Source: Promethearchaeota archaeon (GTDB lineage: Archaea; Asgardarchaeota; Lokiarchaeia; Sigyniarchaeales; SOKP01). Taken from it: a stretch of 64,000 nt of DNA. The number at the start of each line of letters is the position of its first letter. The stretch's first letter is position 1. The stretch is taken from assembly GCA_048937405.1 (NCBI GenBank), contig JBHLNF010000006.1, forward strand, positions 1 through 64,000. The letters run 5' to 3'. Positions 5,619-27,135 of the stretch are shown here, piece after piece. The position numbers and the translations under genes are program-made. The notes under the pieces are model-generated. The model was not told where the DNA came from. It saw nothing but the letters and a program-made list of their open reading frames with translations, and made no database searches.

Positions 5619-5852
5619 ATTCGTTCAAACCTAATTAGATTGATTGGAAATGTTATTTTTATATGTAAAGAAGAAACGTTTATTAATATTTTTAATTGAC
5701 AAAAGAATTAAAACTTCTTTACTTATAATTTAGAATAACAATAAAAAATATTAGAATTTATTAATTTTTATTTCTAGAATAAGCCGAAACATCCTAAATC
5801 TTAACTAACTAAAAATTTTTAAAAAGAAAAAAAAGTTTGAACTGTTATTTAA

Positions 5853-6806
5853 ATGCCTTTAAATGAAGAACATATTTTAAAGTATTTAAGCAATTTATCG
5901 GATGCAAAAACTAAAGCAGAACTAATTGGTCTTTTAAAAACCAGGATAGATAAACTTTGTTTTGAGGAATGTGAACGAGATAGAATTGCATGTACTTTAC
6001 AACCAAAATGTTCAAGAAGATTTTTATTAAAATTAAGGATAAAGTCAGGACTTACTATTGAAGATTTACCCAAATTTTGCTATAGTGTCCATAAAGGAGT
6101 AAATGAAAGATTTTTTAGAAATAAAACTGTAATTTATAGACCTTATGATAATTACCTCTATTTGATTGATTTTTTAGATATTTTTTTTCATGGTGATTAT
6201 CGTAAATTAAATAAATTCATTTCATTTAATAAATGGGATGATGTATTTAAGATATTTGATGACAGAATTCAGAACAGAGATGAGAATTTTGATTATTTAT
6301 TAGTAGAGGATTACATTATTTTCAAATTTGGAGATCGATTACATATTGCCTTTTTAAAAGAAAAATATGTTCTATGCAATGCCAATCGTGAAGATATAGC
6401 TAGTCTTGAATTATTATATGGAATTTGTAAATTATATGCAGCCTTATATTTTTCTGAAGTTAACCTAACATATATACCATCCAAACATATAGAGATCACT
6501 CTTAAAGTACCTTCTGATGTTCTAACAAAACTTTCAGGAGAATCCTCTGAAACAAGAGATTCTAAAGCGGATCAATATTTCTGGGATACTTTTTGGGAGG
6601 ATCTTAATGCATTAACCCAATATTGTAATCAAATTAATTTAAATACTGATACAAATCAAAATCTAGAAATTGTATTGTACATCAATCTTTTAACTAATAA
6701 TTATGATGAAGAAGGACAAAAATCACGATTAAGATTTAGAGATTTAAGATTAATTTTCAATTTTATAACACGAATTTATACAGATTATTATATTATTTGG
6801 GTGTAG
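5853..6806 (+). CDS. Hypothetical protein with an N-terminal Cys cluster (possible metal binding)
   Basis: Long ORF; CFEEC..IAC..PKC..FC in the N-terminal part. Confidence 0.6.
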   Translation: MPLNEEHILKYLSNLSDAKTKAELIGLLKTRIDKLCFEECERDRIACTLQPKCSRRFLLKLRIKSGLTIEDLPKFCYSVHKGVNERFFRNKTVIYRPYDNYLYLIDFLDIFFHGDYRKLNKFISFNKWDDVFKIFDDRIQNRDENFDYLLVEDYIIFKFGDRLHIAFLKEKYVLCNANREDIASLELLYGICKLYAALYFSEVNLTYIPSKHIEITLKVPSDVLTKLSGESSETRDSKADQYFWDTFWEDLNALTQYCNQINLNTDTNQNLEIVLYINLLTNNYDEEGQKSRLRFRDLRLIFNFITRIYTDYYIIWV

Positions 6807-19990: not shown

Positions 19991-20632
19991 TTAGATAAAA
20001 ACTTTCTTTTGCAATCTTACATATTCCTTATATTCCAAAAACTCTTCCTCAACATATTCAAAAGCAATATCAAATAATTGTCTCAACAATTCCTCAGGAA
20101 AAGCTTTTTGTTTGAAAATAACTTCATTTACCAATTCTTCAGTAAGAATTTGAGAATTGATTGGCTGGTTACCTAATAAAAAACGCATCATTGCTTTATC
20201 TACTTTAGATTTAATGAGATTTTTTATAAATTTTAGGCTAATATCTCGCTTAGGATCGATAAAATATGGGAAATTCATATCATCCAAGATTTTAATGTAA
20301 TTTAAAGATTCTGTTATTCTATCAACGCAATAATCTAACGCACTTATTGGGAGTCCAAATTTTCCACAGAAAGTTTTTTTGGTTTCATGAACAGGAAAGG
20401 CAAAAGGATGTCTTGAAATAATATAATAAGCCGCAATAAAGAATTTATATAAATTATGCGGAACTTTTCCATTATTTCTTAAATACTTATAGACTACTGA
20501 AACCGTATCTAATAAGTAGTTATGATTAATATCAAATTGTTGTAAAAATTCCTGACCATCCTTTATTATATCAATTGTAATGCGTTCTCTGGTATTAATT
20601 TCTTCATATTGTGGGATATAGAGTTCTAACAT
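19991..20632 (-). CDS. Cyclin-fold / TFB-repeat-like protein
   Basis: FFIAAYYIISRHP....TKKTFCGKFGLPISALDYCVDRI resembles the TFIIB/cyclin repeat (AAxxYxxxR..T..e...fgv...l); no Zn ribbon; ATG at 20632. Confidence 0.5.
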   Translation of the reverse strand: MLELYIPQYEEINTRERITIDIIKDGQEFLQQFDINHNYLLDTVSVVYKYLRNNGKVPHNLYKFFIAAYYIISRHPFAFPVHETKKTFCGKFGLPISALDYCVDRITESLNYIKILDDMNFPYFIDPKRDISLKFIKNLIKSKVDKAMMRFLLGNQPINSQILTEELVNEVIFKQKAFPEELLRQLFDIAFEYVEEEFLEYKEYVRLQKKVFI

Positions 20633-20648
20633 CTTACACACACTAGGT

Positions 20649-20781
20649 TATAATATTCAAATGATATACTAATGGTATATGAATATTATATGATCCTCTT
20701 CATTTATAAATCTACGCATCTTCAGTGATGCATTAGATGATCATTTGTGCAAACATTTAAATATAGAAAAAAAATGATCAT
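20649..20781. promoter_or_regulatory. Divergent promoter region with several palindromic operator-like elements
   Basis: 11-bp inverted repeat TATAATATTCA/TGAATATTATA (20649-59/20680-90); GCATC-N6-GATGC (20716-31); ATGATCAT at 20737 and 20774 flanking TTTAAATA (20756-63). Confidence 0.5.
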
Positions 20782-20817
20782 AATAAGCATTAAGATTTTG
20801 TTAGTGAGACTAAAAAA

Positions 20818-21243
20818 ATGCCATCAGAAACAAAAAAATCATCAGATTTATCTAGAATCACTTTCAGTCTAGATGCTTTTGATGAGAGAGTAATTAATCT
20901 GATGGCAGAAAAGAGAAGACAATCTCGTTCAGAGACCGTTCGAAATTTAATACATAATTGGATTGAAAGCAATCCAAATTTATTAAAAAGTAATTATGAT
21001 ATTGATTTAAATGATATTACTCGAGAAATCGAGATAACTGATTATGATCAAGTTATTCAAAGTTCAATTCAGAGGCTAATAAAGTATTCAGAATTATTTA
21101 ATGAAATTGAATTTGATATTTTAGCAGAACAATTAGAAATTAGTAAAAAAATCCTGAGGGATATTATATTTGAACATAAAAATAAATTAGAGAAATTTGG
21201 TATTAAACTCAGAATCCGAGGAAAGTTAATTATAAAAGAATAA
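20818..21243 (+). CDS. Ribbon-helix-helix regulator with a C-terminal winged-helix-like domain
   Basis: RITFSLD..ERVINLMAEKRRQSRSETVRNLIHNWI is a CopG/RHH pattern; C-terminal EIEFDILAEQLEISKK is HTH-like. Confidence 0.75.
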   Translation: MPSETKKSSDLSRITFSLDAFDERVINLMAEKRRQSRSETVRNLIHNWIESNPNLLKSNYDIDLNDITREIEITDYDQVIQSSIQRLIKYSELFNEIEFDILAEQLEISKKILRDIIFEHKNKLEKFGIKLRIRGKLIIKE

Positions 21244-21257
21244 AAAGTGATGAATAT

Positions 21258-21473
21258 TTGAGTATAGGGAATGTAAATAGATTCCATCATGAAAATATTA
21301 ATGGAGCATATAATACAATTAGTTTTAATATTTCTGAAATCGTTATTCCTTTTTCACGATTATTCAATAAATGTGAATCTGCAGATATATATTCAGGAAT
21401 AGAAAGAATTCCGTTTAAAGAAAGAAATGCAGAATATAGGACTATTTTACAACAAGAATTCATTGGATATTAG
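21258..21473 (+). CDS. Micro-protein, member 1 of an uncharacterised 'IPFS-DIYxG-EF' family
   Basis: Aligns without gaps to 25754, 26118 and 26530; TTG start 14 bp after the RHH stop. Confidence 0.75.
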   Translation: MSIGNVNRFHHENINGAYNTISFNISEIVIPFSRLFNKCESADIYSGIERIPFKERNAEYRTILQQEFIGY

Positions 21474-21536
21474 TGATTCATTTTATAATAGAAACTAGAC
21501 TATCCATTTTTCCAATAAAATTTTGAATTATAGTTG

Positions 21537-22013
21537 TTACTTTCTTCTATTAAATTTTCTTATTTCGTTTTTAAAAGTAGGGGAAGTTGTGATGTCCATA
21601 TTAGAAAGTCTTTCGTTTATAAATTCTATTTGTTCATTAGACAGAAAGTCACTAACATTCATTACTTTTGGCTGATATTCGACAATTTCATCAGCAACCA
21701 TTTTATGGCATAAAAGAGAAGCTGAAAATAATACTTGAGCAGTAAATCTGAAAACTGTCCAACCATTATCGATTAAGAACTTAGTTTTTCTTAAATCACT
21801 TTTCTTTTGATCAGGTGTTTTATAATCTAATTGGATATTATCACATTCGATGGCGATTTTATATTTTTCAATGGCAAAATCAACTGTATATTGACCAATA
21901 TTTACGTTAGCTTCATATAAATCTAATAAATTATTTGGAGCACCATCTACAAAGGATTCTTCATATTTTGATTTACAGGATTGCTTTAAATATTCTTTTC
22001 TCGATGTTGTCAA
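21537..22013 (-). CDS. DUF559/Vsr-like endonuclease-fold protein
   Basis: IGQYTVDFAI..KIAIECD...D..K..FL..GWTVFRF. Confidence 0.75.
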   Translation of the reverse strand: MTTSRKEYLKQSCKSKYEESFVDGAPNNLLDLYEANVNIGQYTVDFAIEKYKIAIECDNIQLDYKTPDQKKSDLRKTKFLIDNGWTVFRFTAQVLFSASLLCHKMVADEIVEYQPKVMNVSDFLSNEQIEFINERLSNMDITTSPTFKNEIRKFNRRK

Positions 22014-22398
22014 GATTAATTACACCTATAATGTTAATAGTTTAAATATATAAAAAAAACTTTTTAGTTTTATGGAGAATCCCTAGCCTTTATAATTTTG
22101 AATTTTAATAGGATTTATTAAAACACACAGAATTTCTCAATATAAAATTAATAATAGGTTTTTGGAATATATAGAATTAAAGGATAATAAAATAGATCCG
22201 GGAAGCAATTAAAGAAGCTTATATTCTAATTTACTGTGATTTTTTTTCTGTATCATTATCGCGATTATAACAATTAAGGACAAATATTTAAATTTCAAGA
22301 CTATTATAATAAAGTCAGTTTTTTTAATTTGAATCTTGTTGGTTGAGAATTAGGAAAAAAATACACAATATTTTTTAATTATTTGATAAATATCAGTA

Positions 22399-23973
22399 GT
22401 GGTTATTATGAATATTAAAAGAAGGATGAGGAATGGTTATATTATTTTAATTGGATTATGTATATTTCTCGGGATTGCAAGTTTGGTTCAAATTTATACT
22501 TTAAATTCCACCATTGACGATTTAACAAATAATAAATTACAGTCAAATATTTATTCTAATAATATTAAATATCATACCGAGAAAATTATCCGATCTATTT
22601 TTAATTATGAGAGTGGAGATACTAATTTAAGAACAAGTTATAATAGTTCATATGAAGAAATTTTAGAATCTCTAATTATTTTAGAGGAATTAAACTCCCA
22701 CTTGAAGTCTTACATATCCGCCCTTAGCTCCTATATTAATTCAATTAATACACTTGCGACTGATGAAACCACTGGACTTTTTATTTTAGTAGATGAATCC
22801 TCTATTTATTTATCTCAAATCGAGAATAATATAGAGAGTTATGAATTAGACATAATTGATCTAACAACACAACAAACTAATCTGACTTTAGCAATTAATG
22901 CAGCAGAATTAAATTACTTAGTAAATTCTCAATATCTTTTAATTAACTATTATCGTAATGAAACAGATGGATTAGTAAGAGATGAATTGGAATTAGAGTT
23001 TATCGATCTTGGAACAGATATTAAAGATAATCTACAATCAATAATAGATAGCCCATATGTGCAAAATAAGACACTTGCAAATGCGATTAAAAGCTGGTAT
23101 ATTAATACTTTTGAACCATTAGTTTTAAATGAAAATGGATTATTTGATACACTTAATTCTCTTATATCAAGAGAGGAGACGCTTAAAGATTTTGATACTC
23201 CAATATCTATTCTCATTAATCAAATATATACTGATATTGAAAGTGATGTTGCTAATAGTATTAAAGACTCAACAATAACAATAATTATTTCATATATCAT
23301 AGTCATTATTTCAATCGTATTGGCAGTAGGGATCAGTATTGCTATTGCAGTCCCTACTACAAAAGGAATTGTTAAAGTAAATAAGTCAATGGAAAATATT
23401 TTAAAGACTGGTGCTAATGCCGTTATTGATGTTGCAAATATGGCAAGTGAATTAGCAGGGAGTGCAAGTGAAGTTAATGCTTCAGCAGAAGAAGTCTCAG
23501 CTTCAACTGAACAAGTAACAAGAGAGATTATGGAAATATTAGATTCATCAGATGAAATTAAAAAAGTAACAGAGATGATCATAGATATTTCAGAGCAAAC
23601 TTATCTATTATCGTTGAACGCAAGAATAGAATCGGGGAGAGCTGGAGAATATGGAAAAGGATTTGCTGTGGTTGCTGATCAAGTTAGAAGACTTGCAGAG
23701 GGGATAAAAGAATCAATTAAAAATACTAAGACTATAATTGATGAGATTATAAATAAAATTAGAAAAACCACACATTCAATGGAAGAAATAAGTGCTGCTT
23801 CAGAGGAACAAACTGTTACAATGGAAGAAGTAAGCACCACTGCCAACAAACTTGATAATCTAGCTGAAGAATTGAAAAACCAATTAACAAAACAGGATAC
23901 AATCCTCAAAGAAGGAAAAAAAAAGCCAAAAAAATTAACTATCAAAAAGAAAATAACTAAGAAAAAAATTTAG
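22399..23973 (+). CDS. Methyl-accepting chemotaxis-like receptor
   Basis: Two TMs around an extracellular domain; ISEQTYLLSLNARIESGRAGEYGKGFAVVADQVRRLA signalling hairpin. Confidence 0.92.
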   Translation: MVIMNIKRRMRNGYIILIGLCIFLGIASLVQIYTLNSTIDDLTNNKLQSNIYSNNIKYHTEKIIRSIFNYESGDTNLRTSYNSSYEEILESLIILEELNSHLKSYISALSSYINSINTLATDETTGLFILVDESSIYLSQIENNIESYELDIIDLTTQQTNLTLAINAAELNYLVNSQYLLINYYRNETDGLVRDELELEFIDLGTDIKDNLQSIIDSPYVQNKTLANAIKSWYINTFEPLVLNENGLFDTLNSLISREETLKDFDTPISILINQIYTDIESDVANSIKDSTITIIISYIIVIISIVLAVGISIAIAVPTTKGIVKVNKSMENILKTGANAVIDVANMASELAGSASEVNASAEEVSASTEQVTREIMEILDSSDEIKKVTEMIIDISEQTYLLSLNARIESGRAGEYGKGFAVVADQVRRLAEGIKESIKNTKTIIDEIINKIRKTTHSMEEISAASEEQTVTMEEVSTTANKLDNLAEELKNQLTKQDTILKEGKKKPKKLTIKKKITKKKI

Positions 23974-24131
23974 AATCAATCTTTTTTTTAAAATCAGAGA
24001 AAGTCCAATTCAGATTTTCTTTGTAATTGAGATTAATTGCGCATAAAGTATATAATAGTTATTCTCAATATAGAAAAACTTTTTAATCTAATGTAATATA
24101 TCATTAACTCATAAATTAAATCTATTTTTAT

Positions 24132-25544
24132 GTGATTAAAACGTCAAAAGAAGAAAATAATCTAAGTTCATTTAGTGAAATTCTTAATGGTGAAGAAATT
24201 GAATATGAAACAACTACTTCCAAGCGTAATGTATTTTTTTGGGCAATGTATGATCTCGCAAACACTATTTATTCCATGGTAATCGTTAGTTTAATTATAA
24301 ATCGTTATGTTCTGGTGATTGGTCAATTAGAAAACGGATTATCCTATGGTACAGCTAGTTTTTTATATGGTACAGTAAGTTTCTTAATGCAACTTGGAGT
24401 TGCTGTATGTGTTCCCATATTAGGAGCCTTTAGTGATAATATAGGGAAAAGAAAGCCTTTTGTTGTAAGTTTAACCGGTATTATTCTTCTTTTTGCCAGT
24501 TTACTTGGCTTTTTCCATGATCTTACAATGGTTCTGGCATTCTATGTTATTGCAAACATAGCTTATCAATTTAGTTTAACTTTTTATGATGCAATGCTTC
24601 CATTTATAGCTAAAAGAGAGGACATTGGTAAGGTTGCTGGATTTGGGGTTGCATGGGGCTACTTAGGTACCATTCTTGCTCTCGTTATAATGTATCCCCT
24701 AATAATATTATTAGGTGATACTGTATCAACTCCACCAGTACTACCTGAAGATGACCCAATACAATATGGATTTTCTGGATACTGGTTTACATTTGTTATA
24801 CCCATGATTCTATTTTTAGTATGCACAATTCCATTCCTTTATGTTCGAGAAAAACAGAAAAAAGTTCAAAGACCACCTATAAATAAGTTAATAAAAAATA
24901 CTTTCAAACAATTAGGTAATACTTTTAAAGATATTCGAAAACATAAATCAATGTTTATATTTATCATTGGTTACTTTTTTGTTGCTGATATTGCTAACGT
25001 TATTGTTCTCTATATGACACCAATAGTAACTGATGGATTACGTATTGCTGGTGGAACACTATTTGCTATACTTTTTATTATTATTGCTACTATTTCTGCC
25101 GTTACTTTCACATACTTTGTTGGAAAGTTTGGCGATAGATATGGTGCAAAAAGGACTTTTTACCTTGTAGGCGCTTTTTGGGGGATTTCATTAACAATTG
25201 GTATTGTTTTAATATTCACAACGCAATCCATTGATATTGGTGCGAATCTTCCCTTTATATTAAGTCTCATTATGGGTATTGTAGCAGGTCCAGCTTTAGG
25301 AGGAACTTGGGTAGCACAACGAATTATGGTAATAGAACTTGCTCCCAAAGAAAAATTTGGAGAATTTTTTGGTTTTTCTAAACTAAGTGGGAAATTTTCT
25401 TCAGCATTAGGTCCATTTGTTTGGGGAACAGTTATGCTTTCATATGATATTATAGGTAAAGTTGCATTTGGTTGGGCAATGATATCTGTTGGTATTATAA
25501 TGGGAATCGGAATATTGATTATATCCTTTATAAAGAATGAATAA
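24132..25544 (+). CDS. MFS transporter, UMF1/Atg22-like
   Basis: WAMYDLAN, PILGAFSD..GKRK, FYDAMLP, GYLG, EFFGF..GK....GP. Confidence 0.88.
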   Translation: MIKTSKEENNLSSFSEILNGEEIEYETTTSKRNVFFWAMYDLANTIYSMVIVSLIINRYVLVIGQLENGLSYGTASFLYGTVSFLMQLGVAVCVPILGAFSDNIGKRKPFVVSLTGIILLFASLLGFFHDLTMVLAFYVIANIAYQFSLTFYDAMLPFIAKREDIGKVAGFGVAWGYLGTILALVIMYPLIILLGDTVSTPPVLPEDDPIQYGFSGYWFTFVIPMILFLVCTIPFLYVREKQKKVQRPPINKLIKNTFKQLGNTFKDIRKHKSMFIFIIGYFFVADIANVIVLYMTPIVTDGLRIAGGTLFAILFIIIATISAVTFTYFVGKFGDRYGAKRTFYLVGAFWGISLTIGIVLIFTTQSIDIGANLPFILSLIMGIVAGPALGGTWVAQRIMVIELAPKEKFGEFFGFSKLSGKFSSALGPFVWGTVMLSYDIIGKVAFGWAMISVGIIMGIGILIISFIKNE

Positions 25545-25753
25545 TCGATAAAATACTAATTATCATTTCTTTTTTTTTTATATACATTTAAGTCAATTTC
25601 TTTATGATTTCCTTTTTTTCATAAAATAAATCAGAATTTCAAGGCTTTTTATATATAAACCTTTCGTTTACTATCGATTTAAATATTTAAGATTTATACA
25701 ATAGGTAAGAAGTATGAATTAATGATAAAACTTACAATTTTGGATAAAGTAAT

Positions 25754-25966
25754 ATGGTTGTAGACAATTATAATAAAAAATGGCAAGAATTTTTTAATTT
25801 ATCAGAAAACCATCCATTTTTTGATATATCACACATCTCAATTCCTTTTTCTGCAATTAAAGATTCCATAAAGCCACAAGATATTTATGTGGGGCACGAG
25901 AAAATTTGTTTCAAGGATAGGCTTCAAGATTATAAAAAAATCTTTATCCAAGAATTTTTAACCTAA
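25754..25966 (+). CDS. Micro-protein, family member 2
   Basis: ISHISIPFS..PQDIYVG..ICFKD..YKKIFIQEFL aligns with the other members. Confidence 0.75.
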   Translation: MVVDNYNKKWQEFFNLSENHPFFDISHISIPFSAIKDSIKPQDIYVGHEKICFKDRLQDYKKIFIQEFLT

Positions 25967-26117
25967 TTGAAGGAATTTATCTACTTTTAGAATATTAATG
26001 GCTTATATAACGAAGAAGAGATTTTCCTTGAAAAAGCAATTAATTTTTTAAAAAAACCATTCAGTTTTTATATTTAGAATTAAATAATCCATAAAGGAGA
26101 TCAACTCTTGATGGATT

Positions 26118-26429
26118 GTGAATACACTTACAGTTGAGAAAAAAGTCATAAAATATTTAGAGAATATATTAAAGCCAGAAATTCTATTTGATAAAAGAAT
26201 TCTTCAAAGAAAGAAATTCATATTATTAACTAAGCTTGTAACAAAATTATTCTCTAATAAAAATTCGAAAGTATACTTCAAAAACATTTCAAATTTGATA
26301 ATACTAGTTTTAAATATGTATAATGAAAAATATCCAATCGATATTTTTTCAAAATCAGAAGATGATGCTCTAAAAAATGATAAATTAAAATATAAACATA
26401 TTTTGAAAGAAGAATTCCTTTTAAAATAG
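26118..26429 (+). CDS. Micro-protein, family member 3 (divergent, N-terminally extended)
   Basis: ISNLIIL..PIDIFS..YKHILKEEFL keeps identical motif spacing. Confidence 0.65.
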   Translation: MNTLTVEKKVIKYLENILKPEILFDKRILQRKKFILLTKLVTKLFSNKNSKVYFKNISNLIILVLNMYNEKYPIDIFSKSEDDALKNDKLKYKHILKEEFLLK

Positions 26430-26529
26430 TGAATTAAATAGGAATTAATCACTAATTTTGTCGGGTCTTTTAATTTAAGTAGATTAAATTTTATTGAAAT
26501 ATTAAATAGTATTCAATGTGAGATAAAAA

Positions 26530-26748
26530 ATGGGATTAGAGGTAGAAAATAAAAATTATTATGAGTTTTTTGATGAAATTAATGTTCAAGAAGAAACATC
26601 AAATATAGCCTATTTAATTATCCCTTTCTCGACGTTGTTTAAAAATGAGAATCCCCCAGATATATATACTGGCAAGCTAGCCATTCCATTCCAAGAAAAA
26701 GATTCCGAATTTCAGCAAATTTTGATGAATGAATTTCTAGTAAAATAG
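26530..26748 (+). CDS. Micro-protein, family member 4
   Basis: IAYLIIPFSTLF..PPDIYTG..IPFQE..FQQILMNEFL. Confidence 0.75.
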   Translation: MGLEVENKNYYEFFDEINVQEETSNIAYLIIPFSTLFKNENPPDIYTGKLAIPFQEKDSEFQQILMNEFLVK

Positions 26749-26808
26749 TTCCTTTTTATTAATTTAAAACCATTAGAAATTATTAAATTCAAGTTAAAGA
26801 CATTCTTT

Positions 26809-27135
26809 TTATTTAGCAATCGGAATGGGTTTATTTGGAAACAAAAATACATTTTGACACATAGGACATGCATTATAGTTTTGAAGCCAAGAAGATACAC
26901 ATCTAAAATGATAAGTACTTCCACAAAATGAACATTTAATTGTTTTATATTTATCTGGATCAATTTTTATATGACAAATTGTACATTGTACTTGCGTTAT
27001 TGATTTTTCTTTTTCATTTTTTAACTTTTTACCACAAAAACAACAATATTTTATTTTATCTTTATTAAACTCAGATAGTTTCCTCCCACAATAAGGACAG
27101 AAATTTAAAATTTTTTCAGACAAATCCATTTTCAC
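26809..27135 (-). CDS. Zinc-ribbon plus C4HC3 RING-type finger protein (candidate ubiquitin E3)
   Basis: CPYCG...CCFCG, then CTIC-x13-CSFC-x4-H-x2-C-x3-WL-x5-CPMC. Confidence 0.8.
   Translation of the reverse strand: MKMDLSEKILNFCPYCGRKLSEFNKDKIKYCCFCGKKLKNEKEKSITQVQCTICHIKIDPDKYKTIKCSFCGSTYHFRCVSSWLQNYNACPMCQNVFLFPNKPIPIAK

Follow-up and report, generated by a model that had tools for sequence, protein, structure and literature searches.

Small proteins with a shared C-terminal module form a multi-copy family beside genes for DNA-associated proteins in one family of Asgard archaea

MicroProteins of the eukaryotic, plant type are small single-domain proteins that are related to a domain of larger proteins and titrate those proteins. 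Small second genes of operons led by a ribbon-helix-helix (RHH) regulator offer another point of comparison, as do the archaeal 'u-proteins', among them zinc-finger proteins with a single domain in Haloferax volcanii (PMC6562870) and small proteins from Methanosarcina mazei (PMC12704099). Here we describe a family of small proteins from a Promethearchaeota archaeon, encoded in a 64,000-nucleotide stretch (hereafter the window; assembly GCA_048937405.1, contig JBHLNF010000006.1, positions 1 to 64,000) that is AT-rich, with about 27% GC. A first-pass annotation had reported four related open reading frames (ORFs) there, all on the + strand, as a family of four. ORF calls confirmed the four, and a profile search of the whole genome raised the count to six, the two further members lying on contig C21. 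We refer to the window's four ORFs as A to D in coordinate order, B-C-D forming a tandem trio, and to the other two as E and F:

21258..21473, + strand: family member A, 71 amino acids (aa), TTG start, second gene of the RHH operon; family hidden Markov model E 5.8e-34.
25754..25966, + strand: family member B, 70 aa; opens the tandem trio.
26118..26429, + strand: family member C, 103 aa, GTG start; divergent subgroup.
26530..26748, + strand: family member D, 72 aa, acidic, isoelectric point (pI) 4.2; closes the trio.
Contig C21, 59761-59970 and 60119-60301, in tandem: members E and F, from the family-profile search of the whole genome.

The four ORFs in the window are true paralogues, with BLASTP E-values far past chance (A vs B, 9e-16; B vs D, 2e-11; C vs A, 9e-7; C vs D, 8e-5). 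Similarity among them at the DNA level is detectable at the 3' ends only (67-76% identity), so that the paralogues are old and not products of recent duplication. To see whether the sequence might be an RNA gene or a repeat rather than coding, we also searched Rfam, with zero matches. MAFFT aligned the last ~45 residues of A-D without gaps and with seven invariant columns (I25, I30, D43, I44, I63, E67 and F68 in member A numbering), and the spacings described at first sight, 18 residues from Ile to Asp and 24 from Asp to Glu, were recovered exactly. The 'invariant IPFS...' core announced together with them stood in part: the DI, EF and Ile positions hold, but member C reads ILVL where the others have IPFS. 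Member C and its orthologues are without either IPF motif and carry a conserved helical N-terminal extension; at ~103-105 aa, these orthologues are the commonest annotated form of the family in public data. Orthologues of A and C start with ATG, as compared to the TTG and GTG of the present genome. The trio's own spacers, first put at 100-150 bp, measure 151 and 100 bp, and judged from them it is plausible that the trio members are separately regulated.

All members are small cytosolic proteins in which a conserved C-terminal module of ~45 residues follows a near-unconstrained N-terminal tail. Within the module are two IPF motifs and a DIYxGxE turn, and an amphipathic helix closes it with the residues EF. 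Across an alignment of 150 sequences the conserved positions (I-P-F-S, D/Y-I-Y-x-G-x-E-x-I-P-F, R, P, Y/F, I-L and E-F) are chiefly aromatic or hydrophobic, and pI spans 4.2 to 9.8 with a median of 6.3, member D having a net charge of -8 and members C and E being basic. Purifying selection, for which the first-pass annotation had proposed a check, was found in the core: pooled over 20 member A orthologues, the ratio of nonsynonymous to synonymous substitution rates (dN/dS) was 0.15 there vs about 0.95 in the N-terminal part, the latter being a rough upper bound because some stop-to-stop frames take in codons before the start. Over the full length, orthologues of member A gave 0.17-0.58 and those of member B 0.20-0.28. 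The family codes for protein, and purifying selection acts on it. Relatives also hold frameshifted or truncated extra copies, pointing to gene birth and death within the family. We considered and rejected a reading of the C-terminus as a PIP box (Q-x-x-[ILM]-x-x-[FWY]-[FWYL]), as only D can be read so and both the Q and the fourth position are unconserved in the 150 sequences.

The observed distribution is broad within one lineage and blank outside it. Of 130 genomes in the window's own GTDB family, 112 were positive with a 37-sequence profile (A2), at 1-9 copies each and over 11 of the 13 genera; the same profile gave zero matches in 19 genomes of three sister families. Likewise, a 150-sequence profile (A3) was positive in 46/54 genomes of the same GTDB family and in 0/196 genomes from 27 other Asgard families. 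An exhaustive search of 1.84 billion cluster representatives returned 241 matches at E <= 0.001. Where public records name the proteins at all, they are 'hypothetical protein' entries from metagenome-assembled genomes (MAGs) of Promethearchaeota or Lokiarchaeia, none of them with a Pfam domain. A search of the literature gave no account of these proteins. This is a lineage-specific, multi-copy family confined to one family of Lokiarchaeia-type Asgard archaea.

The initial impression of an unrecognised, expanded family with a shared module was borne out by searches of Pfam, NCBIfam, PHROG, PADLOC and the Protein Data Bank (PDB), none of which gave a match. For the curated families we required a score that reached the cutoff set for the family, or else E <= 0.001. 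On this basis members A, B and D had no qualifying match in Pfam-A, NCBIfam, PHROGs or PADLOC, and the matches of C and D to curated families were at chance level (E 0.008-0.14, far under the cutoffs). PDB profile searches with the 37- and 150-sequence profiles reached a best E of about 0.1. AlphaFold2 models had a mean predicted local distance difference test score (pLDDT) of 62.8 and a predicted TM-score (pTM) of 0.26 for member A (37 sequences), and 71.6 and 0.35 for member D (150 sequences). In the model of D the C-terminal helix is the sole regular element, residues 51-70 reaching pLDDT 90-93; the ESM Atlas model of member A was poor. Searches with the better model, that of D, found no Foldseek match in the PDB at E <= 0.001, 0 of 48,161 chains at Z >= 2 in VIA-align, and TM <= 0.44 in the atlas shape search. 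Because the model is only moderately confident, these negatives fall short of proving a new fold.

Having found a conserved module without known relatives, we turn to the genes beside which it recurs. Member A closes a two-gene operon that diverges from a third gene:

20818..21243, + strand: RHH plus winged-helix (RHH-wHTH) regulator, 141 aa, first gene of the operon ending in member A.
20642..20817, strand not applicable: divergent promoter region, 176 bp, with two TATA-like boxes and a palindrome at 20714-20733.
19991..20641, - strand: 216-aa protein, divergent from the RHH operon; single copy.

The protein of 20818-21243 matches Pfam RHH_1 (PF01402) over residues 13-50 at 23.2 bits, above the gathering cutoff of 20.5. 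Its gene is single copy in the genome, with dN/dS of 0.02-0.10 at near-saturated dS, and the protein is 79-94% identical across 22 MAGs. The MAGs carrying these proteins are labelled Odin-, Hermod-, Hod- or Promethearchaeota in NCBI, an inconsistency that makes the phylum labels of related MAG records unreliable. Member A starts 14 nt past the RHH stop codon, in agreement with the regulator first annotated as its predecessor. The same order, RHH gene then member A, occurred at every locus examined, namely 21 of 21 loci of the genus with room downstream (gap 12-20 nt), as well as in three loci of other genera (g12 and g14).

The region between the divergent genes contains TTTATAAA, the palindrome and TTTAAATA. 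It is near-invariant over alignments of the orthologous intergenic regions of 14 species, in which synonymous sites are saturated. The palindrome has the form ATGCATC-N6-GATGCAT (7-N6-7), with one mismatch in the window copy; the window has it only once, and the rest of the genome has no exact copy. The region 20642-20817 is likely an autoregulated divergent promoter, with the palindrome as a candidate operator. We also considered a shared RHH operator before all members and rejected it, the palindrome being confined to the RHH promoter.

The 216-aa protein occurs in 89/102 genomes of the GTDB family (identity 40-92%), and three other families of the class hold distant homologues. Neither Pfam nor NCBIfam matched it, and Pfam was also blank for 10 homologues. 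The cyclin/TFB fold first assigned to it (TFB being transcription factor B) stays putative, since its profile gave no more than a sub-threshold match to cyclin B1 in the PDB (E 0.05), next to which HSP90 scored E 0.02, likewise weak. The genome does encode a real TFB-like paralogue, beside members E and F on contig C21, and no relation between the two proteins was found (hhalign probability 0.3% for the 216-aa protein against the TFB-like paralogue family). Separately, a language-model look-alike search with the 216-aa protein led to DUF6398 clusters, which we give as a lead only.

Genus g13 has both the RHH gene and the 216-aa gene but no family member that could be detected. There, an 81-codon ORF follows the RHH gene (L097, G065:C1:106000-115500, 5693-5935) and is unrecognised by the family profile; it may be either a replacement or a member diverged past detection. 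When tried as a diverged family member, it was not supported.

Members E and F lie in a second conserved context. They follow a gene for an 845-aa Hel308-type helicase, with DEAD, Helicase_C and archaeal domain 4 regions, and then a conserved 93-aa gene (1099-1380 of L005, contig C21:58261-61470). This order of helicase, 93-aa gene and member was found in 5/6 genomes of the genus examined and at 9/20 loci of genus g14. The 93-aa proteins, whose C-terminus is QNL...L...SQRYFMKLYLK-like, make up a second undescribed small-protein family, with four members in the genome and conservation in two genera; tried as diverged members of the present family, they proved unrelated. In g14, another subgroup of members stands directly after an Lrp/AsnC regulator gene. 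The TFB-like gene next to E and F encodes a divergent TFB/TFIIB paralogue of ~420 aa (1501-2814 of L100, contig C21:58894-62919, minus strand), with a zinc ribbon (TFIIB zinc ribbon, E 1.6e-4), a cyclin core (PDB TFIIB cores, E 4.5e-4) and a long C-terminal extension. This genome has two copies of it, and relatives have as many as five. Its adjacency to family members was found in this genome and one relative only, and we rejected it as a conserved link.

Larger forms of the module were encountered in genera g16 and g17 and in metagenomes. They include a fusion of the module to an EVE domain, fusions of one or two modules to an uncharacterised domain of 170 aa (g16 and g17), and a fusion of a member-C-like module to a segment like the 93-aa protein, met in a single genome of another genus (L074). 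These fusions are rare, and they show that the module is portable. The 170-aa partner domain was not found in the source genome.

The trio occupies a third context, between a major facilitator superfamily (MFS) transporter gene and a RING gene:

24132..25544, + strand: MFS transporter gene, Pfam MFS_1 9.4e-30; upstream of the trio, syntenic context only.
26809..27135, - strand: RING-H2 finger protein, 108 aa, zf-RING_2 29.5 bits vs a cutoff of 27.3; convergent with the trio.

Checking the neighbourhood, as the first-pass annotation had suggested, we found the trio facing RING homologues in at least 10 genomes of the genus, and RING-member adjacency in two other genera with differing arrangements. 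The arrangement in the genus is the trio B-C-D, then a gene for a 212-aa membrane protein, then the convergent RING gene. The 212-aa gene lies between D and RING in at least nine relatives and is absent from the window (26749-26808); elsewhere in this genome it has a distant homologue only, on contig C16. We rejected its identification with the fused 170-aa domain, as it encodes an unrelated membrane protein. In two relatives, member A directly precedes the MFS gene that leads the trio, which suggests that A-D were once a single locus. The 2.6-kb stretch between A and the MFS gene, missing from those two relatives, looks either inserted here or lost there. In the window this stretch holds two genes: one, on the minus strand at 21537-22013, is DUF559/MTES-type endonuclease-like, and the other, at 22399-23973, encodes 524 aa including an MCP signalling domain. 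A contig from a Loki's Castle sediment metagenome (P0273), the sole find of a search for longer fused forms, carries a 285-aa call in which the first half of a member-C-like gene runs on into a phage-integrase domain; here a mobile element has probably inserted in or beside a member-C-like gene.

How might so small a module act in such different surroundings? The reading that we favour, while holding it tentatively, is that it may be a fold-on-binding partner module for the DNA-associated proteins encoded just upstream. The module alone would not be stably globular and would fold when binding or oligomerising, serving as a small protein-binding subunit that modulates these proteins. Member A, which the spacing of 12-20 nt suggests is made together with the RHH-wHTH regulator, would bind that regulator and tune its repression at the palindromic candidate operator. 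Lrp/AsnC regulators, the Hel308-type helicase and the 93-aa companion of the latter could be served by other members in a like manner, with paralogues that differ in partner and charge. Several features argue for this reading: the model is locally confident, non-globular and without a fold match; conservation falls mostly on aromatic or hydrophobic residues, net charge being variable; members recur on the same strand directly downstream of unrelated DNA-associated genes (RHH-wHTH, Lrp/AsnC and Hel308-type); and natural fusions show the module to be portable.

Other considerations weigh against a binding role. Adjacency may mean co-regulation rather than binding, and a low pTM can stem from a small or novel fold as well as from disorder. 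Genus g13, which keeps the RHH and 216-aa genes alone, suggests that the regulator has no strict need of a member. Lastly, the gene that the trio B-C-D follows encodes an MFS transporter and not a DNA-binding protein.

The main rival is direct nucleic-acid binding, which we consider rather unlikely. Members would then be stand-alone mini-domains that bind single-stranded DNA, RNA or modified bases, acting beside the helicase and the regulators and not bound to them. The conserved pattern of F, Y, F, Y/F, F and R57 is what draws us to this possibility, together with the conserved place behind the Hel308-type helicase and the fusion to EVE, a reader of modified nucleic acids. Against it, charge is unconserved across the family (-8 in member D; median pI 6.3), and no known nucleic-acid-binding fold or family was matched.

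Three further explanations fit less well than either of these. A gene for ~70 aa placed within 14 nt of an RHH gene resembles a type II toxin-antitoxin pair, with the remaining members as orphan toxins or decoys, and the gene birth and death seen as frameshifted extra copies in relatives would agree with it. We nevertheless find this explanation improbable. Toxin-antitoxin modules are mobile and patchy, but the RHH protein here is single copy, 79-94% identical, constrained (dN/dS 0.02-0.10) and fixed in synteny across genera; five of the six members are without an RHH partner; and Pfam, NCBIfam and PADLOC gave no match to a toxin family of the RelE/ParE, HicA or MazF type.

Slightly more improbable still is the idea put forward in the first-pass annotation, in which a transcription or cell-cycle module has the members as its adaptors or substrates and is governed by the neighbouring RING E3 by way of ubiquitin-like turnover. 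Adjacency of RING genes and members in three genera, in differing arrangements, is consistent with such a link, as is the genuine TFB-like paralogue beside E and F here and in one relative. Yet the RING gene is convergent and usually parted from the trio by the membrane-protein gene, the TFB-like adjacency is unconserved, a cyclin fold in the 216-aa protein is putative, and genes for ubiquitin, E1 and E2 were not seen at the locus. Finally, precursors of exported or modified peptides of the RiPP type (ribosomally synthesized and post-translationally modified), suggested by tandem small ORFs between two MFS genes and by a faint match of member D to an NHLP leader (E 0.021), are very improbable, since conservation is inverted (variable N-terminus, conserved C-terminus), the conserved neighbourhoods lack a modifying enzyme, fusions to cytosolic domains exist, and the leader model TIGR03793 scored 14.7 bits vs a cutoff of 50.9.

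Returning to the partner-binding reading, a bolder form of it can be considered. The module could be a new fold-on-binding domain that, by means of 3-9 paralogues in each genome, wires the RHH-wHTH/216-aa pair, Lrp-type regulators, the Hel308 helicase and the RING E3 into a lineage-specific regulatory network. We regard this extension as doubtful; if true, it would amount to a prokaryotic hub-and-adaptor network built from a short motif-like domain. The family is abundant, under selection and tied to a few conserved loci that involve transcription regulators, a repair-type helicase and a RING finger. It also provides a small, tractable entry point, consisting of 70-residue proteins, one candidate operator and defined candidate partners.

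Set beside the systems with which we began, the family shares something with each. As with microProteins, the module also occurs inside larger proteins, with which free copies could compete or which they could mimic. Since the larger forms belong to other genera and this genome yielded none, the titration logic of microProteins would not seem to apply here as such. Like the u-proteins, members are under ~100 residues, too short for enzymes and often unannotated or unnamed, and u-proteins too are thought to act via larger partners. Unlike them, the present family bears no sequence relation to u-proteins, has no Cys or zinc motif, and is multi-copy, restricted to one Asgard family and tied to particular syntenic loci. 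A small gene translationally coupled to the RHH gene before it, with a palindromic candidate operator in the promoter, recalls operons of the RHH (CopG/Arc/MetJ) type in which the second gene encodes, for example, a type II toxin-antitoxin partner that co-represses its own operon. In contrast to those operons, the RHH protein here has an added winged helix and is the product of a conserved single-copy core gene, while the small protein matches no toxin family and most of its paralogues have no RHH partner. Thus placed, the protein family, apparently including its fold, matches nothing known, and its likeliest role, that of a small binding partner, would not be of a new kind.

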